Below are positions 5,202 to 39,680 of a stretch of 64,000 nucleotides of DNA, in pieces; position 1 is the first letter of the stretch; each line of letters opens with the position of its first letter. The stretch lies in the IMG/VR virus record IMGVR_UViG_3300028797_000145, positions 1 to 64,000 of that record; one strand, 5' to 3'. The translations under genes were made by a program, and so were the position numbers. The stretch is from a virus (lineage: Duplodnaviria; Caudoviricetes). The notes under the pieces are model-generated. The model saw only the letters and a program-made list of their open reading frames with translations. It was not told the origin of the DNA and did no database searches.

Positions 5202-5230
5202 CTCATAAAAGGGCATGATTTTTCTGCGAA
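5202..5230 (-). promoter_or_regulatory. Phage-specific promoter-like element (TTCGCA-N14-TTTTATGAG) upstream of the nuclease/RNAP operon
   Basis: Same 29-bp architecture as 17 other copies (see findings). Confidence 0.65.
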
Positions 5231-5282
5231 TGCCAAAAATATAAATTTTGTTAGTAGTCGGAACTTCTATACTCTGTTCTAC

Positions 5283-5621
5283 TCAGCTGTAAATATCCTC
5301 GTAGTCTAGAAATGCTCTGCTATTCTGTTCCAACTGCTCGAATACTACTTTCTCCTTTACTTCATCTTCACATTTCTTGCAAACAAACTTGCCTTCCATC
5401 CATCCGTCTGATGACTCATAGTCGAGATACTCATTACACTTCTCACAGAAGACTGCTATCTGCAAAATATCATTAGGGCTTTTGTCTGTCTTGTTGGTCT
5501 TTCCTCTAAGTTCATCTTCACCAACTTTAACACACTCGCTCTTAGCCACCAACTTCCCATTAATCTCTTTAAAGACAATTACAAAGTCTTGTCCGTAAAT
5601 ATCATTGTACTCATCTCTCAT
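5283..5621 (-). CDS. Hypothetical protein with C-terminal Zn ribbon (CEKC...CKKC)
   Basis: 112-aa ORF with two CxxC pairs. Confidence 0.65.
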   Translation of the reverse strand: MRDEYNDIYGQDFVIVFKEINGKLVAKSECVKVGEDELRGKTNKTDKSPNDILQIAVFCEKCNEYLDYESSDGWMEGKFVCKKCEDEVKEKVVFEQLEQNSRAFLDYEDIYS

Positions 5622-5734
5622 TCACTCACCGACTTTCTCAACCAGATCTCAAAAATATCAACAACCGCAAAACTAAAAGTTATTGCAATTGTACCTATAC
5701 CTCTGTTGAAAGTCAACAAGCTTCAAAGAAAATA

Positions 5735-6079
5735 TCATTCCGCGTACGGACACTCTCCAACAAACTCCGGATCTTTCTCTTTATCCTTCTTCTTATCTCT
5801 GCGATCTTTCACGAAAGCAATCACAACATCTTTTCGACAGAGTAACATTCCTCCGGTCTTAATCCCGTTGCATGCTTTCTCAACTTTGAACAAGTTGTAT
5901 CCTTCGTCAGAGAGTTCACCAAGAATATCAATAAACTCATTGTACGTAATTGAGCCGCACTCCTCAGAGCTCATCAATTCCGTGGTGATGTTAACTCCAC
6001 CTTCCTTGTCCGCTTTCTCCCTTAACCACTCTTTAACTTTTTTGTAGTCAGGAGATCTCTTGATCAACTTATTACTCAT
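5735..6079 (-). CDS. Hypothetical protein
   Basis: 114-aa ORF on the coding strand, composition like its neighbours. Confidence 0.6.
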   Translation of the reverse strand: MSNKLIKRSPDYKKVKEWLREKADKEGGVNITTELMSSEECGSITYNEFIDILGELSDEGYNLFKVEKACNGIKTGGMLLCRKDVVIAFVKDRRDKKKDKEKDPEFVGECPYAE

Positions 6080-6084
6080 AAGTC

Positions 6085-6550
6085 ACAAATCCGTCCTTTC
6101 TCCAAAAATATCATTTACAGCAACCTCAACACTAAAAATCACAATTACACATTTTTGTCCGTACATTAATCACAATTTGTTCACAATTTCTACATCACCG
6201 ATTATTGTCCGTACATTAATCACAAAAATCCTCAATTTTTACCTCGTGGCCAAAAACCCAAAAATTTTCGCTAAAACTTTTTATTTTTAGGTCTAGAATT
6301 TAAAAAGTCTTAAAAAAAAAATGGGTTTTTGGGCTTTTTCTGTACGTACAAAAACGTCTAGCCCAGTGTTTATCGGGGTTTGCGGGGTATGAGTCCGTGG
6401 CCAAACTATCAAAAAAAAATGGGCGAAAAGCCCAAATATTTGGGCGAAATCGACATTTTTTGCAAATTTTCATTTTTGTGCACACAACAATTTTCACGAT
6501 TTTTTGCAAAAACCCAAATTTTCCAAAAATATTTGGCCACAAAATTCACA
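6085..6550. repeat. AT-rich, A/T-tract non-coding region with direct repeats (origin-like)
   Basis: TGTCCGTACATTAATCACAA exact at 6156-6175 and 6206-6225; recurrent (C/G)TGGCCAAA/TTGGCCAC and AAAACCCAAA; long A/T runs. The ORFs here translate to low-complexity K/F-rich shadows. Confidence 0.55.
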
Positions 6551-6554
6551 CTTT

Positions 6555-6791
6555 TTACCCAACTTTTTCTGTTTTTGTCCGTACAAATTCGACCAGTTTT
6601 TGGCTACATTTTCGACAAAAATGCTGAATTTTACCATTATTTGAGTACAAATTCACCTGAATTTTATCCCGATTTGCCTTCGAATTACCCATATGTTCCT
6701 TCGGAATAGCCTCTCCGCACATGTCACAATGGTAAAATATCACCTGAATTGGGCCAAATTCACCCCTAAAATCCTCTCTAAAGACCTCCAT
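6555..6791 (-). CDS. Small Zn-binding hypothetical protein (CDMC...CRKC)
   Basis: RBS GGAGG, two CxxC pairs. Confidence 0.6.
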   Translation of the reverse strand: MEVFREDFRGEFGPIQVIFYHCDMCGEAIPKEHMGNSKANRDKIQVNLYSNNGKIQHFCRKCSQKLVEFVRTKTEKVG

Positions 6792-6808
6792 TTGACCTAA
6801 ATTACCTC

Positions 6809-6994
6809 CTATCTAGTCAAAAATATATAGGCCAGAACTGCAAAAAAGTACAAAATTACTGTGAAATCAGCGAAATTTGCGCCATTTGCATCCTCTTTAC
6901 CTACATTCGCAGCCAGCGTTATAGAGTATGTAATTAGGAATAGAAGGCTTAAGAACACCAAAAAGCATCTTAAAAATATCATTATTACCTCCAT
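6809..6994 (-). CDS. Small two-TM membrane protein
   Basis: 61 aa with two hydrophobic stretches; RBS GGAGG before the internal Met. Confidence 0.6.
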   Translation of the reverse strand: MEVIMIFLRCFLVFLSLLFLITYSITLAANVGKEDANGANFADFTVILYFFAVLAYIFLTR

Positions 6995-7162
6995 TTATCG
7001 ATAAAGCGTCCGTACACGGTCTTCAAAGTCATCCAAAATCTTTACTTTTTACATTTCCGGCCGAAAATATCACTTCAGAATACCTCTGTAAGGCCCAAAA
7101 TGGCCCATATAGAGCCTCCAAAAACCGCGTACAAACGCTATCGATCAACCTTTTAAAGCCTC

Positions 7163-7366
7163 TTAAATATAATTGTACGAGGCACAGGCCTTACAATCTG
7201 AGCATTGACGCTCAATACGTTCAGCCTTTATCAACTCATCAATACGCTCTTTTGACGTATTAGAAGCTACTTTCATTACACATTCCGGCATTTGATTCTT
7301 GCGAATATCCGAATCTGTGTAGCGAAGACCGGTAATTACACCGACATACTCAATTCCATTGCTCAT
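7163..7366 (-). CDS. Small hypothetical protein
   Basis: Adjacent to the upstream ORF, C-terminal CxxC pairs. Confidence 0.55.
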   Translation of the reverse strand: MSNGIEYVGVITGLRYTDSDIRKNQMPECVMKVASNTSKERIDELIKAERIERQCSDCKACASYNYI

Positions 7367-7603
7367 CTAGCAACCTCCTTTGCAACCAATATCAAGTTCT
7401 GTTCTTGGAAGGTTGTTTTCGTCTCCGCTTTTAGGTGGATTATCATGATAGTACTCAGATACGAGTTTTACCATCATGTGTTCCTTTGCTTCTTTTCGAC
7501 TACACCCTTCCTTTCTGCAGTATCGATCAATGTAACCATCGATAAGTTCCTGGATCTGTTCCTCTGTAGATTTTTTGTTATCTGCCAATGTCCTTTCCTC
7601 CAT
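7367..7603 (-). CDS. Small phage hypothetical protein
   Basis: 78 aa, good RBS, operonic spacing. Confidence 0.6.
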   Translation of the reverse strand: MEERTLADNKKSTEEQIQELIDGYIDRYCRKEGCSRKEAKEHMMVKLVSEYYHDNPPKSGDENNLPRTELDIGCKGGC

Positions 7604-7612
7604 TTACAAATA

Positions 7613-7852
7613 TCACCCGCGAACAATACCTTCTGATCCGGTATTACGAATGTTTACACGCGCAACCCCATTGTTCCAGTTCACAATAGCCAATGTCTCT
7701 GTCGGTGCTGTAAACTCCTGGTTAAACTTACAATCCAGTGACCCACATTTCAGAGAATATCTTTTTACCATTTCTGAAGGATCAGGGTGTCTCTTCACTT
7801 TAGGAGTATTTCCGCACTTAGGACAGGGGAGAATGTGAAAATTTGACTGCAT
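7613..7852 (-). CDS. Lar-family restriction alleviation-like Zn-finger protein
   Basis: LPCPKCG...CGSLDC...LAIVNWNN matches the Lar-like pattern (LxPCPFCG...C..C...A...WN). Confidence 0.55.
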   Translation of the reverse strand: MQSNFHILPCPKCGNTPKVKRHPDPSEMVKRYSLKCGSLDCKFNQEFTAPTETLAIVNWNNGVARVNIRNTGSEGIVRG

Positions 7853-8156
7853 TTCTTCTATACCTCTCTTTCAACTCAAGTAATTCTTCCAGCGTTTCGC
7901 TGTCCCTCTTAAGTAATTCTTGATGCTCACGTCTCAAACTCAGATAGTTAGACAAGAGATTTGCATACTTGTATACGAGAAGATTGTACTCTGCGTGAAT
8001 ATCATTGTCTTCCCATTCAGAAGCCTCGTCTAAGTAATCACTAAGCCCAGCCTCATCGAGATCTCCACACGTGTCTTCATCGTAGAGAATATCCTCCTCT
8101 ACCTCATCTTCTAAGTATTGGTGCTCAGGTTCGAACACTTTCTTTATACTGATCAT
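7818..8156 (-). CDS. Acidic coiled-coil hypothetical protein
   Basis: 112 aa, D/E-rich N-half and heptad-like C-half. Confidence 0.6.
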   Translation of the reverse strand: MISIKKVFEPEHQYLEDEVEEDILYDEDTCGDLDEAGLSDYLDEASEWEDNDIHAEYNLLVYKYANLLSNYLSLRREHQELLKRDSETLEELLELKERYRRNAVKFSHSPLS

Positions 8157-8167
8157 TTATTACCTCC

Positions 8168-8419
8168 TCATTCATCTTCTCTAAGCGAATCAATCATGGC
8201 TTCAATGTGATCACGGATGAAGTCCAGTTTGCATCGTTCAAGTTCTTTAGGTGCAACCACCCAGGTAATTTTTGCATCTGTGTCTTTGTCAAGAACCACG
8301 ATACGAATATAACCAGACTTTCCAAGTCGTCCTTTATTAAATGTAAAAGAGACTTCGAAGTTTTCCGGAATGAACACATTGTCCAATTCAGAATATAACT
8401 TGTATAAACAGCTGCTCAA
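8168..8419 (-). CDS. Hypothetical protein
   Basis: 83 aa, 4-bp overlap with the upstream gene. Confidence 0.6.
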   Translation of the reverse strand: MSSCLYKLYSELDNVFIPENFEVSFTFNKGRLGKSGYIRIVVLDKDTDAKITWVVAPKELERCKLDFIRDHIEAMIDSLREDE

Positions 8420-8775
8420 TTAATCACTTCCTTTTTTAAATTGTATTTGAAGAACGCTTTACGATTCTCGAAATTCTTTGGATCGTACGTACCATTCTTC
8501 AAAGCTTCGTAAATATCATGCTCCATGCTCTTAAGGAACTCCCACTCAAACCAGAATCGGCCATACCTTTCGGACTCATATAGAATGATTACCCAGCCTT
8601 CATCTAGTTCCGAGTTAAATATCCCGGTGATAGCAAATGATAGAGAGCAAGGATCGACTACTTCCATGTATTTCTTGAGAGCGTCATTACACTCACCAAA
8701 ATATAAGAAGTTAGCTTTACTTCCGATCTTGACTTTTTCTCCTTTGTACGCGTCAATAGCTTCTTCAAGAGTCAT
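8416..8775 (-). CDS. Hypothetical protein
   Basis: Start moved to MTLEE (RBS GGAG upstream). Confidence 0.55.
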   Translation of the reverse strand: MTLEEAIDAYKGEKVKIGSKANFLYFGECNDALKKYMEVVDPCSLSFAITGIFNSELDEGWVIILYESERYGRFWFEWEFLKSMEHDIYEALKNGTYDPKNFENRKAFFKYNLKKEVIN

Positions 8776-9029
8776 ATTCCAAACTCCTCCAGTTCCGAGT
8801 AAAATATCAACAAGGCTTAAGTTTGTCCGTACTGATCCAAGCACCTGCGGGACTACCACTGCTTAGTTTTACATCATCCGACCAGTACTTCTGTTCGTAA
8901 GGGTGCCGGTGAGTGAACAAGTACTTTTTGCCGTTATACAAGAAATATCTTCCTGCGAAAGGCGGTTTCTTTACGGACAGGTTAGCCTCAATCACCATGT
9001 CGTAATCCTTCATCTCAAGTTCTTTCTCT

Positions 9030-9450
9030 CTACTCATGTGTTTCCTCCTCGTTAATAGTGGGTTCGTACTTGGCAAGCTTCTCTCTTAGCTTCTGTATCG
9101 TACGCTGCTGAGCATCAATGATCTTGCGATCGAGAATCAGCAAGTTTTTCAATGCCTCAGCAAATTCATCCAGTTCATTTTTTTCTGCTTCCGAAATATC
9201 TTTATTTTCGTCTTCCAACTTACTTAACCTCCTTCTTATACTTTGGATTTGTGGTGTGCTTGCATTCCTTTTGGCACGAAGTCTTCTTGCACTCGGTGTT
9301 TTTCTCAGGATCGCACAAGTACATAGGCTCAAAACCGTAGAACGTGAATACACCTTCTTTGTCGCATGCCTTAAATACCGGTGGTTTCCTAAGAATATAA
9401 GTAGTCCCCTCGTACGTAAGACACCCGTAACCTCCTGCCTTTCCAGCCAT
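9030..9450 (-). other. Two overlapping small ORFs (9030-9353 coiled-coil; 9220-9450 Cys-rich); true starts uncertain
   Basis: ORF track; located between the helicase and the downstream small genes. Confidence 0.4.
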
Positions 9451-10745
9451 TACTTCACCTCCCCATAGTTTTTAGTAACCTGAAATGGTTGTTTGAAAAT
9501 ATCATTGCTGATGAATTTCGTTTCATTAAACTTCTTCTTTTCGCTCAGAGCCTTCTCGATGGATAAGTCAATGTGAGATCTGGTCTTGAGATGGTAATAC
9601 CAGAGATCTACATACTTGGTGTTCATTCGATCAATACGACCCGCTGCCTGCTCCATAATTCGATAGGAGTAGTTCGGTGAGAAGAATATAATAGTGTCGG
9701 TTGTGATGCAGTTCCAACCCTCAGCACCTGATGAGTACTGCACTAAATATACCCACTTGTCTCCTTCTGGTATTGGATCGTGTCTCTGGCCGTTGCACTC
9801 TGCTATTTGGTAGCCTTGATCTTCCAAGCAAGACAAGTTTTCTTTGAGCATCTCTAGTTCGGCAATCAGGTTGTAAAATATAATTGTCTTAGGATGCTTG
9901 TCTACCAGCTCAAGCACTTTAACCATTCGTGATACATCGGTGTTTACTAATCGTCGTAGGCAATAGCAATACTCGGATGCATTCTCGATTGGTTGGCCTT
10001 TGAATATGTTCCATCGCTCTTTGGTGATCTGCTTGTACAAGTTGCGGTCGTAGTCTACGTAAATATCCTCATGGTGGACTACCGTTGGCTTCTTTACAGG
10101 AATATCCACAAGTAGAGAGTCTCTGTATCGTGCCAGCTTCTTTGTTCCAAGATAGCGATCAATCTTAGGGAAGTTTGTGAATGGTGAAAATATCACATGC
10201 TCGTTGTTGAACGCTGTTCGGTTCGGATAGAATCCATTTGCGATGAAGACTGGTATGTAATCTTCCCATTTGTCTCCAGGAGTTGCAGAGAGTAGAATCC
10301 ATTTGTTTCCACGGGCAATTTTCAAGAATGACTTAACCCAAGATCCTCGACCTACAACTCTTTGCTCGTCAAATATAAAGAAGGCACCTTTTACACCGGC
10401 ATACTTTCCTATGTTGTTCCAGCTGTCAACTACTACTTTGTTTTGGTAATAGTTGAGCTCGGGAATCGTACTTAGATGGAACGGAATCATCTCGTCTTCC
10501 CATTCCTGCGAGTCTCTCTTTTTTGCTGTGGTGATGATGTATAGATCTACAGGTTGACACATCTCTTGTGGTTCGTAGTTGTTTTTTACTTTTTCCCATT
10601 CACTAAATACTTCTCCACCTTGAGAAATATAATAGTAGGCTAGAGAGGTCCGGCTTTTACCAGACCCCACTCCACCACAAAGTATGCAACCGTTGTGCAT
10701 CTTGCTTACAGCTTTCCTCTGAGCTTCATTAAGTAACTCAGCCAT
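9450..10745 (-). CDS. SNF2/DEAD-like superfamily 2 helicase
   Basis: Walker A GGVGSGKS, motif II FDEQ, LLSATPG, QYSSGAEGWN, motif VI QAAGRIDR. Confidence 0.9.
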   Translation of the reverse strand: MAELLNEAQRKAVSKMHNGCILCGGVGSGKSRTSLAYYYISQGGEVFSEWEKVKNNYEPQEMCQPVDLYIITTAKKRDSQEWEDEMIPFHLSTIPELNYYQNKVVVDSWNNIGKYAGVKGAFFIFDEQRVVGRGSWVKSFLKIARGNKWILLSATPGDKWEDYIPVFIANGFYPNRTAFNNEHVIFSPFTNFPKIDRYLGTKKLARYRDSLLVDIPVKKPTVVHHEDIYVDYDRNLYKQITKERWNIFKGQPIENASEYCYCLRRLVNTDVSRMVKVLELVDKHPKTIIFYNLIAELEMLKENLSCLEDQGYQIAECNGQRHDPIPEGDKWVYLVQYSSGAEGWNCITTDTIIFFSPNYSYRIMEQAAGRIDRMNTKYVDLWYYHLKTRSHIDLSIEKALSEKKKFNETKFISNDIFKQPFQVTKNYGEVK

Positions 10746-10772
10746 ACTTTTGTCCTTTCTTTTTTTTAAATA

Positions 10773-11498
10773 TCAACGATACAGTCTTCTGCAAGGACCG
10801 CCACGAGTTCCTTTATGCTCATTTTTCTTGAGATCTGGAAGGAGCTGCTCCATAGCTTCGAATGTCTTGCATTCCATTCGGAATGAAAGTACCCACATGT
10901 ATCCTCGCTTAAAAAGTTCGTTGTCTGTTGTATTCCTGGTAATTCTGTATTTGGAAATGGATCCGCTCTTCTTCTCATGAGCTTCGAAATCATCTTCCCA
11001 CTCAGTAGCGAACTCCTTAGCCGTCTCCTGCGATTTGAAATATATATAACGCTTTGTCGGTCTTTTCTTAGGAGTAATGTAAACGGATTCAGAAATATCA
11101 TTCTCTTTAGTTTCTTTCGAGAGCGGTTTGAGACTGCAATTTTCGGATACCAACGTAGCACCCTTGAACTGCGAAAGGTATGACCCAAGAGTCTGCGGTT
11201 CTTTAGTCTCTTTTCTTTCCTCTCTCTTTTTTCTGGCTTGTTCTTCTTTGTTCACAAAATATGAATTGTACTTGGAACGGTCCTCAAACCAGTTTTTGCT
11301 TATCTCGGAATCGTCGAGTTCTGGAACATCAGAAACCGCCTTCTCCTTAGGCTGCTCGAGACAAATATCCAGGTGGACAATCCCGGTTCCACCGGTTCCG
11401 AAGTTGTATTTACTAACTTCATACTGCCCGAGACCCATGTGATTCATGTTCATCAAATCGTTAATAAGTTCTCCAAATGTCATAATTTTTTCCTCCAT
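10773..11498 (-). CDS. Hypothetical protein
   Basis: 241-aa ORF with RBS GGAGG. Confidence 0.7.
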   Translation of the reverse strand: MEEKIMTFGELINDLMNMNHMGLGQYEVSKYNFGTGGTGIVHLDICLEQPKEKAVSDVPELDDSEISKNWFEDRSKYNSYFVNKEEQARKKREERKETKEPQTLGSYLSQFKGATLVSENCSLKPLSKETKENDISESVYITPKKRPTKRYIYFKSQETAKEFATEWEDDFEAHEKKSGSISKYRITRNTTDNELFKRGYMWVLSFRMECKTFEAMEQLLPDLKKNEHKGTRGGPCRRLYR

Positions 11499-11525
11499 TG
11501 AATTAAGCTGAACTAAATTACAACC

Positions 11526-11566
11526 AAGAAGAAAGAGCCCTGGTAAATATAACCCAGAGCTCCTTC
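11526..11566 (-). terminator. Intrinsic terminator-like hairpin with UUAUAUUU in the loop
   Basis: Minus-strand GAGCUCUGG-GUUAUAUUUA-CCAGGGCUC-UUUCUUCUU; a G-U pair indicates the minus-strand RNA. Confidence 0.7.
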
Positions 11567-11745
11567 TCCATAATGGAATGTGTTAATATTGCGATCATCT
11601 AAATAGCCTACCATTACGACCTACAGTTTTCGAATAATACTGCTGCCAAAAACCATCGATCGAACAGTAATGCATAGCTAAAAATAGATCAGGCTTGTCA
11701 TTGTCATCTTCTTCATCATCCAAATCATCTGAATCAGAAATATCA

Positions 11746-16939: not shown

Positions 16940-17013
16940 GTTTTTCTCCTTTCATAGTCAAAAATATAAGTGGATGATGTCATCCCTCATACTAGACCGT
17001 GTAATTTTTGCGC

Positions 17014-17523
17014 TTAGTAGTTTTCATTAAGCCACCACAAAACCTGATCCCAAAGTTCGACTCCCCTCAGGTCTCTAGGAGGCTCAATTAGTGTGACAAT
17101 GCCACCTTTGCCATCTGGTAGGTAATCTCGTTTTAGAAAAGCTTCAATCCTAGCCATACAATATAATTCGTTGAACCGGGAATTAACTTGACCTGCTAAT
17201 CCGAGGCTTCTGATCATAGCTCCAAATATGTTTCCCATTTCCTCATTCGAGTCATCTATGATCTGGCATACCCTAAGCGTCAAGGCAGCCATCATTTCAA
17301 GCACCGAGCATTCTTTGTTGTCCAACTCGGACGCGATGAGAGACGAAGGAATGTTCTCGTCATACCCAAAACGGTATCTAAGTTCAATTCCGTCAGCCTC
17401 TCGATTCGCATCCATAGGGATGGTATACGTGAACGGTCGTCCGTACAAAAACTTTAACAAAGAATCGTACTCATCAGGTGCATCTACCAATTGGCAAATA
17501 TAATAGAAGTACTCCTCTCTCAT
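17014..17523 (-). CDS. Conserved-looking phage hypothetical protein
   Basis: 169 aa, DANREADGIELRYRF and CSVLEMM segments; operonic. Confidence 0.7.
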   Translation of the reverse strand: MREEYFYYICQLVDAPDEYDSLLKFLYGRPFTYTIPMDANREADGIELRYRFGYDENIPSSLIASELDNKECSVLEMMAALTLRVCQIIDDSNEEMGNIFGAMIRSLGLAGQVNSRFNELYCMARIEAFLKRDYLPDGKGGIVTLIEPPRDLRGVELWDQVLWWLNENY

Positions 17524-21446: not shown

Positions 21447-21569
21447 GTTGATACCATCCTTTCTTTAAAAAGTAGTGTTTTTGTGTTATCCATATAGGAC
21501 CATGTTTTTTCTGCGAATTGCAGAATATGAAAAAGGCCCATGCATTTCTGCACAGGCCCTCACATATGA

Positions 21570-22325: not shown

Positions 22326-22366
22326 GTCATTCTCCTTTCATGAATATAATTTTGCAAGCTAAAGAG

Positions 22367-22439
22367 AAGATGCTCCGGGATTCGAACCCGGGACCAACTG
22401 TTTGTTTGACAGATGCTCTACCATCTGAGCTAAGTATCT
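22367..22439 (-). tRNA. tRNA-like RNA with non-canonical anticodon loop (CAAACAA; nominal anticodon AAC)
   Basis: Minus strand AGATACT-TA-GCTC-AGATGGTA-GAGC-A-TCTGT-CAAACAA-ACAGT-TGGTC-CCGGG-TTCGAAT-CCCGG-AGCATCT-T: canonical D and T arms, one acceptor mismatch, T27-T43 mismatch, A33 instead of U33, no encoded CCA. Confidence 0.75.
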
Positions 22440-22472
22440 TCTCCATATAGGGGTATGTTTTTTCTGCGAATA

Positions 22473-23431: not shown

Positions 23432-23469
23432 AATCGTTCTCCTTTCTGGGATTTGGTTTCATTGTTCCA

Positions 23470-23670
23470 TTAAAGGTTGTGCAAAAATTGCGATACCTGC
23501 TGATCACTCACATAAATATCACCGTTAACGTGGAGACGATACCCACCGTCTTTTCTCCGATCGATCTGAATGTTCTCTATCTTAATGTCCTCTACGTACT
23601 TGGACAGTTTTTTCGTAACGAATTTTGCTATAAGCCCCTTCATAAAATCACTGCAAATTCTCAATTGATC
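23470..23670 (-). CDS. Small hypothetical protein
   Basis: Likely start at MDQLRI (RBS GGAGGAGG). Confidence 0.5.
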   Translation of the reverse strand, partial: DQLRICSDFMKGLIAKFVTKKLSKYVEDIKIENIQIDRRKDGGYRLHVNGDIYVSDQQVSQFLHNL

Positions 23671-24310: not shown

Positions 24311-24437
24311 ACTAAATTCCTCCTTAAAAATTTGTTGTCAACGTGTTCCATATAAGGACAGGTTTTTATTGCGAAAGGAAAGAGGAAAAGACCTAAATAT
24401 AACTTTAAGTCTCATCCTCTTGTTTAACTCGGTCACT

Positions 24438-24494: not shown

Positions 24495-24611
24495 ACTGTC
24501 ACCTCCTTTAATGTTTTAGTTTCCGTGTTTCTCATTAAAGAATGTGCAAAATGTGCGAACAAAAATCACTGTATAAATATAACTCGGTTTTTTGTCACCT
24601 GCGTACGGTTT

Positions 24612-33753: not shown

Positions 33754-34548
33754 TCATCCGAACACCTCCTTAAATATCTCGTAGTTGTCTGGATCTGCGC
33801 CTTTGTATACAGCAAATTCGATCTTGTCAAATACTTTAGGGAATACTTTGATTGCATTGAACCATGCCCCCGCAACAGTAACCGGATCATTCATGAAAGC
33901 TCCACATCCAAATGCTCCAAGGACCAAAATATCAGAACCTTCACTTGCAGCACAGGTAAGCATGTGCATAGCTCTTTTGAAATGAATAGAATATAACTCC
34001 AAAGGATTCTTATCTTCGTAACCTAAATCCGGAGCCGCCATAGTTATTACATCTACCTTGTACCAGTCAGACTTTGGAAGTAATTCCGGTCTTTCCGTAT
34101 CAGACTTGAATACCACAATATCCTTGCTGTAGATCAAAGAGTCGGTACTATCGAGTGGATCTATGTCCTCATTATTCCGATAAAAGCAATCGAGTTTTTC
34201 ATCAAGAATTACGGGATATAACGTAGAAATCCTACACAATGATTCCTCTTGAGCTGAAGCACCATTAAGAACCCCACCTCCAGGTACAACACCATTTGCA
34301 AAGTTAAGAACAGCAATCCTTGAATCCGGATTCTCGAGTCTCAATATTCTTGCTGCCTCAAAGCTACGATCACCGGATACAGAAATATCAGCTTCTTTGC
34401 TTCTAATCGGACGATTAACAATGGGCCATTCGTCTTCAAAATATACTCTGCTGTTATCAACAGAATCCTGAACGCATTTGTCTAAATGGCCAGAGTTAAA
34501 AATATAATTCAAAGTGTCAGCGAATATTTTTACGTTTTCCTCTCCCAT
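33754..34548 (-). CDS. Macrodomain, microbial PARG-like (TIGR02452/DUF2263 family) ADP-ribose glycohydrolase
   Basis: VLNFANGVVPGGGVLNGASAQEESLCRISTLY contains the GGG-x7-QEE PARG signature; LVLGAFGCGAF phosphate-binding loop. Confidence 0.9.
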   Translation of the reverse strand: MGEENVKIFADTLNYIFNSGHLDKCVQDSVDNSRVYFEDEWPIVNRPIRSKEADISVSGDRSFEAARILRLENPDSRIAVLNFANGVVPGGGVLNGASAQEESLCRISTLYPVILDEKLDCFYRNNEDIDPLDSTDSLIYSKDIVVFKSDTERPELLPKSDWYKVDVITMAAPDLGYEDKNPLELYSIHFKRAMHMLTCAASEGSDILVLGAFGCGAFMNDPVTVAGAWFNAIKVFPKVFDKIEFAVYKGADPDNYEIFKEVFG

Positions 34549-34608
34549 AAACTACCTCCTTTGCATAAAGAAAAGACCCTCAGCCGTTAAGCCAAGGGTC
34601 TCTAGTTA

Positions 34609-34926: not shown

Positions 34927-35132
34927 TTTTCTACCTCCTCTTTAACGATCTGCTTCTGAGTAATTACACCAATAATCCGTCCACGTCCAAGATCTTCTAC
35001 TTTCACTTCGTAAGCTCTTACTAATTCCGGGCAAGGCTCGAAGTTTGCAAGGAGTTCGTCAATCAAATTCCTAGCGTTGGATTTCTCATTGATCTCCATC
35101 TTGAAAGATACGTTGTAAGTTCTCGTTACCAT
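34923..35132 (-). CDS. Small hypothetical protein
   Basis: Likely start MVTRTY (RBS AGGAG), downstream of promoter-like element 35228-35256. Confidence 0.55.
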   Translation of the reverse strand: MVTRTYNVSFKMEINEKSNARNLIDELLANFEPCPELVRAYEVKVEDLGRGRIIGVITQKQIVKEEVEK

Positions 35133-35270
35133 GTTTTCGTGCTCCTTTCGTAAATATGATTTAGTTAACTGAAACAAAAGGAGAGTGTGCCACCAATTAT
35201 GGCGAGCGCATACAAGCGCTTTCACTCTCCATTAAAGAACGTGTAAAATGTGCGAACAAAAAAGAAGAGC

Positions 35271-35474
35271 CTATTTACGGCCCTTCCTAATTTCTGCTTC
35301 CTCAATAAATATTACTGCCATGAATAGCAATGTATACAATAGAAACAAAATTACTGATGGAACCAATGTTTCTTTGATACTATATCCATCCCATCTCAGG
35401 AATATGATACTTATCATCATTATGGCTCCTATCAAATATCTGATTCCATTAAGCATAACTTTTACTACTTTCAT
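35271..35474 (-). CDS. Small two-TM membrane protein
   Basis: Two hydrophobic helices; own promoter-like element 35502-35530. Confidence 0.65.
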   Translation of the reverse strand: MKVVKVMLNGIRYLIGAIMMISIIFLRWDGYSIKETLVPSVILFLLYTLLFMAVIFIEEAEIRKGRK

Positions 35475-35557
35475 TTCACAGTTCTCCTTTCTATTTTATT
35501 CTGCATAATAGCAGGTGTTATTTGTGCGAACAAAAAATAGGAAAAGCCCAAGCGGGC

Positions 35558-35767
35558 TCATCCTACTACTTCTACATCTCTATAAATCTCTACGACATCA
35601 CACGCGTTAATCGTGTAAACTACGTTTTCTCTTTTGTTCTCTTCTCTAAGTTGCTTAAGTTCTTTAGCTTTCTTACATGCCTTACTTGAGGCTTTAATTG
35701 TAGCCGTTGTAAGTTCCGTTACTGCTATGTTTATAAGTGCCTTTTGAATAAAGTTAAGTTCCTTCAT
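35558..35767 (-). CDS. Small hypothetical protein
   Basis: Likely start MKELNF (RBS GGAGG); promoter-like element 35802-35830. Confidence 0.6.
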   Translation of the reverse strand: MKELNFIQKALINIAVTELTTATIKASSKACKKAKELKQLREENKRENVVYTINACDVVEIYRDVEVVG

Positions 35768-35895
35768 AGTGTTTTCCTCCTTTTCTAAAGCGTGCTTCTG
35801 TCTCATATAAGGGTGTGTTATTTGTGCGTACAAAAATGAAAAAGAAAGAGACCTGGTTAAAACTGCTGCCAAGTCTCTTTCATTGGAAAGGAGGT

Positions 35896-36207
35896 TTAGA
35901 TTGTTCCGTTAATGACTTTTAAATATTGTTTTCTTTCTTCGGGTGTTAATTTCTGAAAGTTCTCATAAAACTCTTCTAAAACCGAAGTCCTTTTTTCTAC
36001 TGAATTTACATAATCATGAATCAACCGTTGTGCTTCATTAACATTTGTTTCTAATACTGCCATATTAACAGCATCTTTCTTAAGCCTTTCGATTTCTTCT
36101 TCCGTGTCTTTCAAAGACTTTCGATCATAGACTTTAAGTAATACTAATCCTGCTCCAGTTAAAACTACACTAACTGTTAAAGCTACAATAAGTTTGTTAT
36201 TCATATC
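35896..36207 (-). CDS. Single-TM coiled-coil protein (paralog of 36802-37113)
   Basis: MNNKLIVALTVSVVLTGAGLVLL...EEFYENFQKL...KVINGTI. Confidence 0.7.
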   Translation of the reverse strand, partial: DMNNKLIVALTVSVVLTGAGLVLLKVYDRKSLKDTEEEIERLKKDAVNMAVLETNVNEAQRLIHDYVNSVEKRTSVLEEFYENFQKLTPEERKQYLKVINGTI

Positions 36208-36483
36208 GAATACCTCCTTTACTATCCTTTCCATAATAGAAGAAGTTAATATTGCAAAAAAAAAAAATAGAACGTGGGTTTCTCGTTAATGTCGATTCTG
36301 TATACTATATCAACAGCCATACTCCCCGCTTGTGTATGTTCCTACGTATTACCTTTGAGTATATTCGACTAACCTCAATGTAATCCATGTATACCTCTTT
36401 TTCCATTAAAGGATATGCAAATTTTGCGAAAAAGAATAGGGAGTGCAAATATCACACTCCCATAATCTTTTATCCTTCTAATT

Positions 36484-36678
36484 TTACTCCGATTTCTCCT
36501 TTCCGAATGCTTTACGAATAGATTCGAAATAAGCCTCAATCGCTTCGTGTTCCTTATCCCATTCTTTTTGTTTCTTTTCATACTTTTTTATTTCATTTTT
36601 CGTTACTACTATACTAATACCACTTCCAATAATAATTGGTGCACATACTAAAGCTACTATTTTTTCCACTGCGTTCAT
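36484..36678 (-). CDS. Single-TM coiled-coil small protein
   Basis: IVALVCAPIIIGSGISIVV then K/E-rich; own promoter-like element and terminator. Confidence 0.7.
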   Translation of the reverse strand: MNAVEKIVALVCAPIIIGSGISIVVTKNEIKKYEKKQKEWDKEHEAIEAYFESIRKAFGKEKSE

Positions 36679-36801
36679 ACTGTTACCTCCTTTTTAAATA
36701 TAGATTTGCATGTGTCCATAAAGGAATATGTTATTATTGCGAAAAGAAAAGGAACAGACCTAGTAAATATCACTAGGCCTGCACCTTATTGGAAAGGAGG
36801 T

Positions 36802-37080
36802 TTAGATAAATCCGTTAATCTGCTTTAAAACTGCTTTCTTTTCTCCCTTATCTAATTGTTGAAATTGCTTGTAAAACTCATCAATTAATAAATCGTGGTC
36901 GATCCATGTACTCGAAATGTTGTCTTCAGTATCTTTTATGCTATCCCTAAGTCTTTCCTTAAGTTCTTGTAACTCTTTTTCGGTTTCTTGTTCGACCCGC
37001 TTATTAAACTTTCTGATCGTAATATAAGCTGCTCCAGTTGCCAATAAAAGGCTTGTTAAAATAATCGCATTTTTGTTCAT
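36802..37080 (-). CDS. Single-TM coiled-coil protein (paralog of 35896-36234)
   Basis: MNKNAIILTSLLLATGAAYITI...DEFYKQFQQL...KQINGFI. Confidence 0.7.
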   Translation of the reverse strand: MNKNAIILTSLLLATGAAYITIRKFNKRVEQETEKELQELKERLRDSIKDTEDNISSTWIDHDLLIDEFYKQFQQLDKGEKKAVLKQINGFI

Positions 37081-37170
37081 ATTATTACCTCCTTTTCTTA
37101 ACTTCCTTTCCATTAAAGGACATGTATTTTATGCGTACAAAAATAAAAAAAATAAAAGAGAAAGGTGCTG

Positions 37171-37440
37171 TTACGCACCAATCTCTATTGCCTTATCTAA
37201 AACCTTATTTACTTCCATGTACTGTGTCCATCCGTTCTCTCTGGTATACCACTTAGGTTCATCAAAATGGGATACACGAATATAAGGTACATACAGGTCT
37301 TTATACTTCCTAGGGTTCTTTTTCTTCTTCTCATACTCTTCTCTAGAAAGTACATACACCTGATCCAAACCATTATCCGTATATTCCGTATAATGAATAT
37401 TGTGTTCCTCCAAAAAGTTAATAAATTCTTCTTTAGTCAT
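37171..37440 (-). CDS. Small hypothetical protein
   Basis: 89 aa, RBS GGAGG, promoter-like element 37468-37496. Confidence 0.7.
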   Translation of the reverse strand: MTKEEFINFLEEHNIHYTEYTDNGLDQVYVLSREEYEKKKKNPRKYKDLYVPYIRVSHFDEPKWYTRENGWTQYMEVNKVLDKAIEIGA

Positions 37441-37533
37441 AGTCCTTTCCTCCTTTTGGTTTTTTGTTGCATAATAGACTATGCTTTTTATGCGAAAAAG
37501 AAGAGACTATGTAAGCCCTCTTCTTGCTGGTTC

Positions 37534-37866
37534 TTAGTAATGTCTCTTGATGATAAATGACTGGGTAATCTTCGGAAGCGTGAAGAGATACAATGCGGTG
37601 TCGTTCAGACCTGTTGCCAGTTCGGTTCTGCATTTTCTCTCAACTTCTTCGAAGGGAAATGCTCCTTCTTCAAAGCCGGGTTTTGATCCCCAATACTGGT
37701 TACATAATCTGATCCACCTAAGTACATCTTCAATGTTCCGATAAACGTTCCAGACAAGCTGATCGTCAAGTCCTTCTTCAGTTACCGCGCAAGAAACGGA
37801 ATATAATTCCTCTTCTCCCTGGTTCCTAAGCCGTTCTACAGCCTCGTTTAAAGTTTCAGTGTTCAT
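37534..37866 (-). CDS. Small hypothetical protein
   Basis: 110 aa, RBS GGAGG, promoter-like element 37905-37933. Confidence 0.7.
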   Translation of the reverse strand: MNTETLNEAVERLRNQGEEELYSVSCAVTEEGLDDQLVWNVYRNIEDVLRWIRLCNQYWGSKPGFEEGAFPFEEVERKCRTELATGLNDTALYLFTLPKITQSFIIKRHY

Positions 37867-37941
37867 ACTGTTACCTCCTTCTCTGGGTTGTTTAACTACT
37901 TTGTTCCATTAAAGGACGTGCCAAATATGCGAGTATAGGAC

Positions 37942-37971
37942 TTGACAATTCCTACAACAAAAATATAAAAT
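37942..37971 (+). promoter_or_regulatory. Sigma70/SigA-type promoter for the integrase
   Basis: TTGACA at 37942-37947, TATAAA/TAAAAT 16-18 bp downstream, RBS AAGGAG before ATG 38007. Confidence 0.6.
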
Positions 37972-38006
37972 AAAGGAAGTTCTAACTATGCGAAAGGAGA
38001 AATACC

Positions 38007-39200
38007 ATGTTAATCAAATGCCCCGAATGTAGTTTGCAAATATCGGATAAAGCGGTGTCTTGTCCGCACTGTGGTTACCCTCTTAAACCGGAAGCCGTCC
38101 GTACACGGTCTTCAACTAGACGTAAAAGACTTCCAAATGGTTTTGGACAAATATCGAAAATCCGAAACAAATCACTCAGGAAACCTTACAGAGCTATGGT
38201 CTCTGTTGGAAAGGATCCGGAGACAGGAAGGCCAATATGTAAATTGCTTCAACCAGTTGCTTACTTTGCAACATACAATGAAGCTTACGAGGCTCTACTT
38301 AAATATAATAGAGATCCGTCCGTACAAGGCTCTAGCATGACCGTAGAAGAGCTTTTCAATGAATGGTCCGAATGGTACTTCCCAGCTCTAAGTAAATCCG
38401 CAATAGAGACTCATATGGTTGCGTGGAAATACTCAAAACTATTACATCATGTGAGAGTTTCTGAGTTAAGAACAAAAAATATAAGAGACTGTATCGATCA
38501 ATGTGAATCTCTTACTACAAAACCTAGAATTAAGACTCTATTTAGTTTAATGCTTGACTATGCAGTAGAACATGAATATATTGATCAGAACTATGCCAAG
38601 ATTATTAAACTAAACCCTACCATTGCAAAAGAGTTAGGCGTGGTTAAGAACAAACACATAGCATTTACTGAAGAAGAGATAAATATAATGTGGAGGAATG
38701 TTGACGAAGTGCCATTCGTTGATTGGATGTTAATACAATGTTACACTGGTATGCGTCCCAGAGAACTTCTCAATGTACAAGTAGAGAATGTGGATCTAAA
38801 CCAAAATATAATCATAGCTGGAATGAAAACGGATGCCGGTAAGGATCGAGTAATTCCTATCCATGCAAAAATAAGAGGACTTGTTAAAAGTAAGATACGA
38901 GTAGCTGAGTATTTAGATAGTCCCTATCTGTTTAATCAGCCAAATAGCATTGGTATGAGCTATACAACCTATAACAAATACTTCACAGAAATCGTGTTAC
39001 AGTTAGGGTTGAACGAGAAGCACCGACCTCATGATCCTCGTAAGACTTTTGTCACTATGGCCAAAAAATATAACGTAGACGAGTACGCAATCAAAAGAAT
39101 AATAGGCCATGCGACTGGTGACTTAACTGAGGATCGATACACCGAAAGAAATATAGAATGGTTAAAAGAAGAGGTAGAGAAGATAGGGAGCCCGGTTTAG
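38007..39200 (+). CDS. int: Tyrosine recombinase (phage integrase) with N-terminal Zn ribbon and arm-binding domain
   Basis: Catalytic residues: TGMRPRE (R), GMKT (K), HDPR (HxxR), IGH (H), DRY (Y); CPEC/CPHC Zn ribbon. Confidence 0.95.
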   Translation: MLIKCPECSLQISDKAVSCPHCGYPLKPEAVRTRSSTRRKRLPNGFGQISKIRNKSLRKPYRAMVSVGKDPETGRPICKLLQPVAYFATYNEAYEALLKYNRDPSVQGSSMTVEELFNEWSEWYFPALSKSAIETHMVAWKYSKLLHHVRVSELRTKNIRDCIDQCESLTTKPRIKTLFSLMLDYAVEHEYIDQNYAKIIKLNPTIAKELGVVKNKHIAFTEEEINIMWRNVDEVPFVDWMLIQCYTGMRPRELLNVQVENVDLNQNIIIAGMKTDAGKDRVIPIHAKIRGLVKSKIRVAEYLDSPYLFNQPNSIGMSYTTYNKYFTEIVLQLGLNEKHRPHDPRKTFVTMAKKYNVDEYAIKRIIGHATGDLTEDRYTERNIEWLKEEVEKIGSPV

Positions 39201-39373
39201 GACTCCCTTCCAAGTGATTCAAGAGTTTTTATTGATTCTAAGTATAGCCTGTCTTTCTCATCTTTCTTTCTGCCAGATTTCTTTATCTTGTAGATAGAGA
39301 GCGCCAGATCTGCAACAATTGCTAAACCAGATAAAAGTAAGATTTTGTTTTTCATTTTGATTACCTCCTTTAA
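39197..39373 (-). CDS. Single-TM small protein
   Basis: Likely start in MKNKILLLSGLAIVADLAL (RBS GGAGG); exact start approximate. Confidence 0.5.
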   Translation of the reverse strand, partial: LKEVIKMKNKILLLSGLAIVADLALSIYKIKKSGRKKDEKDRLYLESIKTLESLGRES

Positions 39374-39400
39374 GAAAAAATAAGAAGAGGAAGAGACCAT

Positions 39401-39586
39401 TTAGGCCTCCTCTTCCTTTGCTTCCTCATTAAACTTCTCAGCTTGCTCATCCGCTTTCATTGCCAAGGAATCCATTGCTTGTACAAACAGTACATTTGTT
39501 GCTTTCTTTTTCATATACATACCAATTGCTACACATCCTGCTACTGCTACTACAACTACGGTTCCTAATACAACTTCTTTGTTCAT
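39401..39586 (-). CDS. Single-TM small protein
   Basis: MNKEVVLGTVVVVAVAGCVAIGMYMKKK; RBS GGAGG; promoter-like element 39617-39645. Confidence 0.65.
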   Translation of the reverse strand: MNKEVVLGTVVVVAVAGCVAIGMYMKKKATNVLFVQAMDSLAMKADEQAEKFNEEAKEEEA

Positions 39587-39680
39587 ATCGCTACCTCCTA
39601 AAAGTTTTATTGTTGTTGCATAATAGAAGGTGTTAAATTTGCGAACTGTAAAAATAAAAGGGAATGTTAAACTCACGCTC

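Follow-up and report, generated by a model that had tools for sequence, protein, structure and literature searches.

A fixed-geometry 29-bp promoter-like element in a caudovirus and its likely reader, a single-chain two-barrel RNA polymerase of the phage

The window analyzed here is a 64,000-nucleotide stretch (positions 1 to 64,000 of IMG/VR record IMGVR_UViG_3300028797_000145, Caudoviricetes) of a complete 86,891-bp genome. Its minus strand carries 18 copies of a 29-bp element, at exactly checked positions from 5202 to 39645, together with a tRNA gene, the gene of a 956-aa RNA polymerase and the adjoining gene of an 82-aa protein (Table 1). The consensus of the element reads TTCGCA, seven A/T-rich nucleotides ending in R, CA, four variable nucleotides, C, TWWWATG, G/A/C and A/G. 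Positions G4, C5, A6, C14, C20, A25, T26 and G27 are identical in 18/18 copies, C3 in 17 and A15 in 16, and the spacer measures 14 nt in every copy, its 8th and 14th nucleotides being C without exception.

Table 1. Coordinates of the element copies and associated genes in the window
Feature	Position	Strand	Remarks
Element copy 1, first of early region	39617..39645	(-)	SD 17 nt, ATG 30 nt downstream
Element copy, CTCGCA variant	37905..37933	(-)	Before 110-aa ORF
Element copy	37468..37496	(-)	Immediately behind terminator-like hairpin
Element copy, TACGCA variant	37109..37137	(-)	Supported by matrix and placement
Element copy	36715..36743	(-)	Behind terminator 36782-36754
Element copy	36402..36430	(-)	Behind terminator 36461-36439; 27-aa micro-ORF, its SD 2-3 nt past element
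Element copy, TTTGCA variant	36230..36258	(-)	Sole copy without C3
Element copy, TACGCA	35802..35830	(-)	Behind terminator-like hairpin
Element copy	35502..35530	(-)	Behind terminator 35559-35544
Element copy	35228..35256	(-)	Behind terminator 35288-35262; 5' leader hairpin from G27
Element copy	24531..24559	(-)	Heads 18-aa micro-ORF
Element copy, CC not CA at 14-15	24347..24375	(-)	Before 186 to 200-aa ORF
Element copy, ATCGCA	23466..23494	(-)	Supported by matrix and placement
Element copy	22442..22470	(-)	2 nt before tRNA gene; final GGAGA can pair with tRNA trailer UCUCU
tRNA gene, element as proposed driver	22366..22439	(-)	No RBS involved; ARAGORN; Rfam RF00005, 53.6 bits
Element copy	21489..21517	(-)	Behind terminator 21561-21532
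Element copy, AGCGCA	16986..17014	(-)	Heads 100-aa ORF and primase-polymerase operon
Element copy	11567..11595	(-)	Heads 241-aa ORF and helicase operon; terminator-like leader hairpin from G28 (z -5.8)
Element copy	5202..5230	(-)	Heads endonuclease-exonuclease-polymerase-p82 operon; leader hairpin from G27
956-aa single-chain two-barrel RNA polymerase (GADFDGD), proposed element reader	1437..4307	(-)	phrog_4291, E=0
82-aa protein (phrog_4303)	1170..1418	(-)	Adjoins polymerase gene in all relatives where seen

The existence of the element is established by several independent counts. A de novo repeat search without any prior returned it as the top family, and a weight matrix derived from the 18 copies found exactly 18 sites of 27-38 bits on the two strands of the complete genome, with no further site above 8 bits on either strand; the element is therefore absent from 40-87 kb. 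The skeleton CGCA-N7-C-N5-C-N4-ATG gave 19 matches versus 0.23 expected (shuffle maximum, 2), 17 of which are listed copies, the remaining listed copy being the TTTGCA variant. The information content, approximately 33-40 bits, and the scattering of invariant bases across all 29 bp are like those of phage-polymerase promoters and unlike those of host promoters. Being high in information, fixed in length, confined to one strand, placed before transcription units and absent elsewhere, the element meets the motif criterion for a phage-polymerase promoter. No published description of it was found in the literature searched, and within that scope it is most likely a promoter so far undescribed.

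The placement of the copies is equally a matter of observation. Strong Shine-Dalgarno (SD) sequences lie 10-27 nt, and start codons 25-42 nt, downstream of 12 copies; in one copy these distances are 34 and 46 nt (SD/ATG), three copies are followed by structured leaders of 62-95 nt, and two are followed by micro-ORFs (27 and 18 aa). Because the copies occupy one strand, stand in about half of the cases behind terminator-like hairpins, and precede SD sequences and, by only 2 nt, a tRNA gene, we take the element to act on transcription and not on translation. A first-pass annotation, made from sequence alone, had claimed 18 minus-strand copies, a constant 14-nt spacer with C at positions 8 and 14, placement before an RBS and ORF or a tRNA-like gene, and absence from the 40-64 kb structural region; all 18 copies and the spacer held exactly, the placement held as promoter-like, with the tRNA gene confirmed (ARAGORN, Rfam), and the weight matrix extended the absence to 40-87 kb. 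The claim that copies often come right after a terminator U-tract held in part, being correct for about half, since approximately 9 of the 18 follow a stable hairpin and T-tract. The claimed misfit to SigA geometry held and was extended, as position 22, the equivalent of the -11 A, is T in 12/18 copies and A in 6/18.

The 956-aa protein folds as a two-barrel RNA polymerase. Its AF2 model (pLDDT 78.6) matched QDE-1 in Foldseek (E 1.6e-9), the P74-26 gp62/P23-45 gp64-type nonvirion RNA polymerases (nvRNAPs) 8f5m/8f72 (~1e-6) and also RDR2, and the match to Pfam RdRP (E 1.8e-4) fell under the family cut-off. Residues D520, D522, G523 and D524 of the DFDGD motif are invariant in 25 homologs, and ORF 1437-4307, as modeled, has the DxDGD metal-binding loop and the double-psi beta-barrel core that define a two-barrel polymerase. 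The protein carries three helix-turn-helix (HTH) domains, two N-terminal and one C-terminal (Pfam Sigma70_r4_2/HTH_23), it is the only family-wide conserved protein with detectable HTH domains, and the genome's sole Sigma70_r4-like matches fall within it; no Sigma70_r2 was found anywhere in the genome, which lacks a sigma factor. The 82-aa protein, whose function is unknown, might conceivably be an accessory factor. A T7-like promoter class was considered and set aside, the genome's only polymerase-like protein having the fold of QDE-1/P23-45 gp64 (phrog_4291).

An element of the same geometry is conserved in relatives numbering in the hundreds, phages and prophages alike, with hosts in Actinobacteria and Firmicutes. 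It was recovered de novo from Lactococcus phage 1706, Arthrobacter phage Mudcat and Streptomyces phage Rima and is also found in Gordonia phage Kenosha and Rhodococcus phage ReqiPoco6, the relatives sharing [G/A]CA, N7, CA, N4, C and TATART. The sites in these five phages (1706, 12; Mudcat, 7; Rima, 12; Kenosha, 10; ReqiPoco6, 14) are grouped behind the tail genes, with one further site near the polymerase operon and none on the opposite strand, and the element is co-oriented with the genes in relatives. Box 1 varies by lineage (CACA in 1706 versus CGCR elsewhere), and the 3' block of the actinophages reads TATAAT or TATAGT.

Scanning the full genome and relatives for co-occurrence of motif and polymerase gene, as the first-pass annotation had suggested, showed it in both directions. 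In the forward direction, 47 metagenomic viral contigs and 80 prophage/MAG loci of gut Clostridia, picked solely for a polymerase homolog, gave 70 and 152 element matches, respectively, on the coding strand versus 2 and 1 on the other, with a match in 74/80 prophage/MAG loci and, in most relatives, a syntenic copy ~0.95-1.15 kb upstream of the polymerase gene. In the reverse test, IMG/VR was scanned with nothing but the DNA pattern, which yielded at least 116 stretches; among the 80 listed, 68 encoded homologs of proteins of this phage, and in 21 the polymerase lay within the stretch itself. Of the 15 least favorable contigs, 10 held a homolog, including all five that were >=90% complete (one of these by a partial N-terminal match only). 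The co-occurrence criterion is thus met forward and in reverse, polymerase-less phages being covered only indirectly by the pattern scan, and the link between polymerase and element gains strength from this co-occurrence, which holds both ways in phages of the two phyla. Since element-bearing relatives carry the same single-chain polymerase, the element is most likely that enzyme's own promoter. The first-pass annotation had made two related claims: that one copy heads the polymerase operon, which held, such a copy being kept in nearly all relatives, and that the element is the cognate promoter of the phage RNA polymerase or of a phage factor, which is supported by comparison, with no experiment. 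The identity of the binder remains an inference, as mapped start sites and assays of binding or transcription are lacking for every member of the family. Co-occurrence is moreover confounded by common descent, a lineage-specific signal being bound to travel with any lineage-specific gene, and we found no covariation between the HTH recognition helices and box 1.

The first alternative is that the copies are ordinary host SigA/sigma-70 promoters of an unusual, strongly conserved flavor, without any phage factor. In its favor, (i) TTCGCA and TATAAT superficially resemble -35 and -10 blocks, and (ii) the primary sigma factors of the hosts share a universal consensus, which might account for conservation across phyla. 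We nevertheless consider it very unlikely, because (i) the distance from TTCGCA to TWWWAT is 14 nt in all 18 copies and in every phage examined, failing the sigma-70 rule of 16-18 nt (17±1); (ii) the rule of a near-invariant -11 A and -7 T is not met, T26 (the -7 equivalent) being invariant and position 22 being T in 109/171 family sites (64%) and A in 55/171; (iii) C14, C20 and G27 have no sigma-70 counterpart; (iv) the information content far exceeds that of host promoters; (v) box 1 depends on lineage; and (vi) the region shows no excess of sigma-70-like sites (47 versus 56.7 expected). Compared with bacterial sigma-70/SigA promoters as a known system, the element shares the two upstream blocks, and its proposed reader has a sigma-region-4-like HTH; the likely start directly past the A/T block and the lack of sigma region 2 in the genome are further differences.

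A second alternative retains the host holoenzyme, which would use the TATAAT-like block as a -10 while a phage DNA-binding protein at CGCA/ACA replaces the -35 contact, the phage polymerase serving other (late) genes. T4 middle promoters, which combine a MotA box with a sigma-70 -10 through sigma appropriation by MotA/AsiA, are the precedent. Several points favor this view: (i) the 3' block of the actinophage versions reads TATAAT/TATAGT, which leaves a host sigma -10 reading possible in these phages; (ii) the center of box 1 lies ~30 bp before the expected sigma-type start, like the MotA box; (iii) the late module has no copy, so that the phage enzyme might act late, as YonO does; and (iv) this phage encodes an integrase and many of its relatives are prophages, and prophage induction requires host polymerase at some step, for no virion enzyme is then present and the host enzyme must start the cascade somewhere. 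Against it, (i) the -10 rules are unmet, T standing for the -11 A at 64% of the 171 family sites; (ii) besides the polymerase there is no conserved candidate activator with a detectable DNA-binding domain; (iii) MotA and AsiA domains (PF09114, PF09010) were unmatched in six frames, although control genomes were likewise unmatched, leaving this search without a working control; (iv) leader stems and tRNA 5' ends lie 1-6 nt past the A/T block, closer than a usual sigma-70 start; and (v) Rima, Kenosha and ReqiPoco6 have CCCC/T, which is poorly suited to initiation, at the expected sigma-type start positions. On balance this explanation appears unlikely to us, though less remote than the first.

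According to a third alternative, the element is no promoter at all, being a protein-binding operator (such as the stoperator-like sites of a repressor) or an RNA-level processing or translation signal. The sites lack symmetry and follow the direction of transcription, like the stoperators of Cluster A mycobacteriophages, the Rima element is flanked by inverted repeats, and this phage encodes an integrase. On the other hand, the element is not tied to lysogeny, as it is kept in virulent 1706 and in the examined actinophages (no integrase is reported for Mudcat, cluster AM); it stands behind terminators, where an RNA-level signal would go untranscribed; it precedes tRNA genes without any RBS; and no RNA structure was found within the element itself. 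We regard this reading as very unlikely. The stoperator class proper, whose sites are tied to the immunity repressor of temperate phages, was rejected on the persistence of the motif in virulent 1706.

The preferred reading, that the 29-bp element is the promoter of the phage's own single-chain two-barrel (QDE-1/YonO/P23-45 gp64-like) RNA polymerase, is likely in our judgment, without start-site, binding or transcription data. Clues to the start site come from the leaders: hairpins begin at G27 or G28 of the element, and stems of >=6 bp start exactly at position 27 in 37/237 distinct sites, compared with 4 at position 26 and 9 at position 28. The tRNA +1 falls on position 32 of the element here and on position 31 in L036, i.e., 5-6 nt past T26, with leader stems beginning 1-2 nt past T26, the sigma-70 rule being a start some 6-8 nt past the -10 hexamer; in the absence of TSS data, we infer from these hairpins and tRNA genes that initiation takes place at the invariant G of the ATG.

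Under the proposed mechanism, the fused HTH domains would read the duplex at CGCA and ACA, blocks that are separated by one helical turn and share a face of the helix; melting would affect the invariant C and the A/T-rich TWWWAT block behind it, and RNA synthesis would begin at or beside G27, into a purine-rich initial sequence. Relative to G27, CGCA occupies -24 to -21, ACA -14 to -12, C -7 and TWWWAT -6 to -1. The element would thereby drive all nonstructural units, namely, ten short early genes (35-40 kb), the tRNA, the replication operons and the polymerase operon, this timing being likewise inferred; the copy before the polymerase operon would create positive feedback, and a terminator-like hairpin at the extreme 5' end of the transcript may temper output in three units. 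By analogy with YonO of SPbeta, it is possible that the polymerase serves, instead, the late genes, which have no copy.

A bolder version of the preferred reading is a minimal, sigma-independent system, in which one ~100-kDa polymerase alone recognizes the 29-bp duplex promoter through three fused sigma-4-like HTH domains, starts at the G past the TATAAT-like block, is possibly virion borne, and runs the whole early and middle program plus its own gene, with a grammar kept from Streptomyces phages to gut Clostridia prophages. Taken jointly, these statements seem to us as apt to fail as to hold. If true, it would offer an expression system that is portable and by nature independent of the host, as well as a living model for a primitive two-barrel polymerase gaining promoter specificity through domain fusion.

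Among known systems, T7/T3/SP6-type promoters are similarly long, conserved, of fixed length, confined to one strand and repeated before transcription units, with an A/T-rich block (TATA) directly before a G start, a purine-rich conserved initial transcript with 5' stem-loops, and one promoter feeding the polymerase's own supply; as proposed here, one polypeptide achieves both upstream duplex recognition and downstream melting. The likeness extends to the 1706, Rima and Kenosha versions, which read CTATAG / CCTATAGTGAG. The enzyme here, however, is of the two-barrel (double-psi beta-barrel) and not the Pol I-like fold, and the element reaches ~26 bp upstream versus 17, with recognition presumably by HTH and an unmapped start. 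The nonvirion RNA polymerases of phiKZ and AR9 are likewise two-barrel phage enzymes without sigma (PMC4666361; PMC5449584), and phiKZ late promoters, T(-3)ATG(+1), initiate at G (PMC4666361), much as the clues place the start at the G of an invariant ATG preceded by T or A here. Those enzymes consist of several subunits, with specificity assigned to a separate one, in contrast to a single chain with fused HTH domains, and they have short motifs (4 bp in phiKZ, PMC4666361; read on the template strand in AR9, according to the title of PMC5449584) versus a 29-bp duplex-type signal.

The nearest solved phage structures to the 956-aa enzyme are of the P23-45 gp64 nvRNAP type. The promoters of gp64 and of the gp96 vRNAP of P23-45 were assigned by TSS mapping, ChIP-seq occupancy of each polymerase and motif-polymerase co-occurrence across relatives (bioRxiv 10.1101/2022.12.01.518664), the last argument being shared with the present work; start sites and ChIP-seq exist only there, the motifs are unrelated (AT-rich and GC-rich), and no HTH fusion is reported for those enzymes (the text of that paper has 0 occurrences of "HTH"). 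YonO, from Bacillus prophage SPbeta, is also a single-chain two-barrel polymerase of a temperate Firmicutes phage, but it serves late genes (PMC5467207), whereas the motif described here marks early and middle units and its proposed reader has HTH domains; no promoter motif for YonO turned up in the literature searched.

As a side observation on the polymerase homologs, the record of phage 1706 labels its homolog (orf75) "structural protein," a label that could be compatible with an enzyme delivered along with the DNA; the same label in ReqiPoco6 rests solely on similarity to 1706.

All 18 copies of the 29-bp element that the first-pass annotation had placed between 5202 and 39645 align without gaps on the minus strand as TTCGCA, seven A/T-rich nucleotides, CA, four variable nucleotides, C, TWWWATG, G/A/C and A/G. 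Counted 5' to 3', G4, C5, A6, C14, C20, A25, T26 and G27 are present in every copy, C3 in 17 and A15 in 16, and positions 8 to 12 are always A or T. The window covers the first 64 kb of one 86,891-bp contig with a completeness rating of 100%; a weight matrix built from the 18 copies, run over both strands of the whole genome, recovers exactly those sites (27 to 38 bits), with no further site above 8 bits on either strand of the 86,891 bp. The nine-base skeleton CGCA-N7-C-N5-C-N4-ATG has 19 matches against 0.23 expected, and the motif ranks first in a repeat search made without prior knowledge. The claimed number and places of the copies held, as did their claimed absence from the structural region, which the matrix scan extends to 87 kb.

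Terminator-like sites are enriched on the element strand (24 versus 10.5 expected), and a stable hairpin with a T-tract directly precedes about nine of the 18 copies, bearing out the earlier remark that the element often follows a terminator U-tract; terminators and then the element form the layout of re-initiation after termination, which argues for a promoter. A strong Shine-Dalgarno (SD) sequence and a start codon lie 10 to 27 nt and 25 to 42 nt downstream of 12 copies, and SD and ATG lie at 34 and 46 nt downstream of one more; three copies are followed by structured leaders, and two head micro-ORFs of 27 and 18 aa. A tRNA gene starts 2 nt past the end of one copy, indicating that the signal acts on transcription. 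Readings of the element as anything other than a promoter are considered very unlikely. Repressor sites of the SPbeta/SPBRE kind were rejected: the phage's 956-aa single-chain two-barrel RNA polymerase is not YonO-like in sequence, and the relatives are 1706-like phages and actinophages. If the element is the promoter of this polymerase, it would drive all the units that it heads, including the polymerase's own operon.

Features of the window, with units headed by the element, leader structures and neighboring observations
Feature	Position	Strand	Remarks
Contig-end block	1-45 and genome 86,870-86,891		very likely cos site
p82 (82-aa protein)	1170-1418	minus	phrog_4303; no Pfam match
Polymerase ORF (956 aa)	1437-4307	minus	matches phrog_4291 over full length
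Leader stem and U-tract	5125-5206	minus	z -2.8; polymerase operon
Endonuclease-exonuclease-polymerase-p82 operon	5.2 kb		headed by element
Leader stem and U-tract	11484-11571	minus	z -5.8; helicase operon
Helicase operon	11.6 kb		headed by element
Primase-polymerase operon	17.0 kb		headed by element
Three units	21.5, 22.4 (tRNA) and 23.5 kb		headed by element
tRNA	22366-22439	minus	called Val, anticodon AAC; A·C mismatch in acceptor stem; CCA not encoded
Two units	24.3-24.6 kb		headed by element
Early-region gene	33754-34548	minus	microbial-type poly(ADP-ribose) glycohydrolase catalytic domain (PF10021, 1.4e-29); possibly a counter-defence enzyme
Leader stem and U-tract	35133-35232	minus	z -3.3
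Ten small units	35.2-39.6 kb		headed by element
TTGACA-18-TAAAAT (11/12)	37942-37971	plus	promoter-like; upstream of integrase
Tyrosine integrase	38007-39200	plus	N-terminal zinc ribbon; sole plus-strand gene seen in window
Non-coding stretch (550 nt)	39646-40139	minus	separates structural module from first element; contains two copies of direct repeat CCTACATTATTCCTACACT; possibly host-polymerase entry point or small RNA
Sigma-A-like site, TTGACA-17-TAGTAT	39922-39894		good match; inside the non-coding stretch

Several features bear on where the RNA begins. The tRNA of the window phage starts at element position 32, behind a leader GGAGA that can pair with the trailer, and a tRNA-Phe in contig L036 starts at position 31 (Infernal) or 30 (ARAGORN). 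Leader stems with their first base at G27 or G28 and a U-tract at their end follow the copies at 5202, 11567 and 35228, as well as one in MT835495.1, a contig with only two element copies and without the early and replication module; these leader hairpins are inferred, from sequence alone, to be attenuator-like or 5'-stabilizing. In 37 of 237 distinct family sites, the first stem of 6 bp or longer opens exactly at position 27, compared with 4 sites for position 26 and 9 for position 28; many of these are the syntenic polymerase-operon site and hence not independent. In the high-GC phages Rima, Kenosha and ReqiPoco6, a conserved and almost invariant leader, GAGACCCCTAYGAAAGGA, follows the A/T block (TWWWAT), with purines only at positions 27 to 30. 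Taken together, the tRNA starts, the leader stems and these purines favor initiation at or next to G27, an inference made in the absence of mapped 5' ends. The late promoters of phiKZ are similar, having TATG with +1 at the G (PMC4666361), and the T7 promoter likewise has TATA followed by G.

The claim that the element does not fit SigA also held, since its 14-nt spacer is invariant, the position equivalent to the -11 A carries T in 12 of 18 copies (109 of 171 family-wide), and the invariant C14, C20 and G27 have no sigma-70 counterpart. Sigma-70-like sites are not enriched (47 versus 56.7 expected). Plain host promoters are very unlikely, and a sigma-appropriation-like reading, in which phage factors would redirect the host enzyme, is unlikely. 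MotA/AsiA gave no match in a search without a positive control, and a six-frame search of the genome found no match to Sigma70_r2. Two points can be raised for these rivals: (i) the A/T block of the actinophages is a perfect TATAAT, and (ii) the polymerase may, like YonO, be a late enzyme. The phage is likely temperate. Since it carries a tyrosine integrase and prophages are numerous among its relatives, some step after induction must rely on host polymerase.

Recognition by the phage's own polymerase remains the preferred reading. Since the hosts are as diverse as Streptomyces, Lactococcus and Clostridia, and box 1, the CGCA block near the 5' end, varies by lineage (1706 has CACA, the others CGCR), the reader has to be encoded by the phage. 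The non-structural proteins common to the window phage, 1706, Mudcat and Rima are the primase-polymerase, helicase, exonuclease, a 213-aa protein of unknown function, the polymerase and p82, and only the polymerase among them has detectable DNA-binding domains. The sole Sigma70_r4_2-like matches in a six-frame search of the genome lie at both ends of its ORF. It is the only candidate reader seen, a likely one, inferred without binding data. Comparing the HTH recognition helices with box-1 position 6, which is A or G, for covariation gave no information; one and the same genome holds both variants. Within single genomes of relatives, the polymerase-operon copy tends to CGCG and the early copies to CGCA, possibly a promoter-strength or timing class.

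The polymerase shows a weak Pfam match to RdRP; its C terminus matches HTH_23, Sigma70_r4_2 and HTH_7, and additional HTH matches lie close to the N terminus. Its DFDGD loop is invariant in an alignment of 25 homologs. Its AlphaFold2 model (pLDDT 78.6) matches QDE-1 (E 1.6e-9), plant RDR2 and, at about 1e-6, polymerases of the P74-26 gp62/P23-45 gp64 type. Searching PDB sequences with the family profile returned HTH proteins only, and a fold search was needed for the core. Homologs occur in 250 phage records (Arthrobacter, Gordonia, Streptomyces, Microbacterium, Rhodococcus, Curtobacterium, the Lactococcus 1706 group and Faecalibacterium) and at no fewer than 302 loci in bacterial species genomes, for the most part from Lachnospiraceae, Ruminococcus and other Clostridia; gut Clostridia with such loci include Hungatella hathewayi and [Ruminococcus] torques. 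Koert et al. (bioRxiv 10.1101/842583) had already described this protein as a supercluster signature and a putative RNA polymerase bearing HTH domains at both termini; the word 'promoter' is absent from their text. The homolog is labelled a structural protein in the 1706 record, and the polymerase, if packaged, could start the early program on entry. The corresponding ReqiPoco6 label is by similarity only and was dropped as a second support, leaving this point to the 1706 record alone. In all relatives examined, the p82 gene directly follows that of the polymerase; p82 may be an accessory subunit or regulator, as a candidate only.

Megablast of 20 kb against phage records found no near relative. 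In Lactococcus phage 1706, TTCCACAtGTTTTACAnnnnCTATAGTAG recurs 12 times between 24.0 and 46.5 kb, always on the coding strand, in register with the element's geometry ([G/A]CA, N7, CA, N4, C, TATART). Seven copies were found in Arthrobacter phage Mudcat (e.g., TTCGCGTAAAATACAAGGGCTATAATGGA), 12 in Streptomyces phage Rima (60% GC; e.g., CTCGCAAGAATTACACGCCCTATAATGAG), 10 in Gordonia phage Kenosha and 14 in Rhodococcus phage ReqiPoco6. None of these five phages has an opposite-strand copy, and in each the copies cluster just behind the tail genes, with a further one near the polymerase operon. At 47 IMG/VR loci chosen solely by a polymerase homolog (44-79% identity), the matrix of the window's phage gave 70 coding-strand matches versus 2 opposite, with a syntenic element 0.95-1.15 kb upstream of the polymerase start; in 80 prophage or MAG loci it gave 152 versus 1, with at least one match in 74. 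Conversely, a scan of IMG/VR with the DNA pattern alone (about 35 bits, a handful of chance matches estimated) found at least 116 stretches; of 80 checked, 68 encode, inside the short stretch itself, homologs of the window phage's proteins and 21 the polymerase. The 15 least favorable pattern contigs include 10 with a polymerase homolog, among them each of the five with a completeness of 90% or more (one with a partial N-terminal match only); the pattern contigs that lack a match are fragmentary. The motif thus predicts the polymerase and the polymerase the motif: the co-occurrence with the DFDGD gene, proposed as a check at first pass, held in both directions, with the caveat that shared descent confounds it.

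Within the 47-kb structural module there are few gaps and no copy or half copy of the element. In 93 relatives the polymerase gene is followed without interruption by p82, a gap that mostly measures 250-500 nt, and the first late gene. A highly conserved block in this gap coincides with both ends of the window's contig, where …CCCCCTCCC…ATCGCGGCGGTCTTTAAAAATTCTCCGGGGG… is conserved in more than 60 relatives (loci L056-L135), and also with the cohesive ends annotated or reported for Mudcat (9-base 3' ends) and ReqiPoco6 (3' cos overhang). The block is very likely the cos site, which would make the contig a genome opened at, or close to, its physical ends. The idea of a late promoter within this gap was rejected, the dominant conserved block being the cos region, and no full or half element was found there. 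Late genes may be transcribed (i) by read-through from the polymerase operon after end joining, (ii) from a different signal or (iii) by host polymerase. The gap of L056-L135 also conserves TTTCTCCTTTC, the reverse complement of an SD, with a flanking inverted repeat, possibly marking a small opposite-strand gene beside cos, like Mudcat gene 2.

Known phage-polymerase promoters include those of the T7-like, N4, jumbo-phage and P23-45 enzymes. No description of this element or promoter was found in the searchable literature, with no mention of the word 'promoter' in the Arthrobacter phage paper; older subscription papers on 1706 and ReqiPoco6 may mention one. What is new, in all likelihood and by inference, is a phage-polymerase promoter for an uncharacterized family of HTH-fused two-barrel polymerases. 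With so sharply defined a 29-bp signal, start sites become predictable, the enzyme can be tested on a minimal template, and invariant bases and HTHs can be mutated. The finding bears on how two-barrel polymerases gain promoter specificity without sigma and on transcription-unit annotation in many actinophages and gut prophages, and offers a possible orthogonal expression system working in both Actinobacteria and Firmicutes.

Two minor observations concern individual relatives. The IMG/VR contig of locus L138 (G015:C1:50130-50390), rated 92% complete, bears the motif pattern, and its polymerase-profile match is limited to the N-terminal 85 residues (HYG..R.SGRYPWGSG and the first HTH), within a frame of 162 aa; this N-terminal part may occur as a module by itself. 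In Rima (L007, 25.9-34.1 kb), inverted repeats of 10-14 bp flank the element, e.g., CCGTTAGGGGTCTC … GAGACCCCTAACGG, and could represent an RNA processing site in read-through transcripts.
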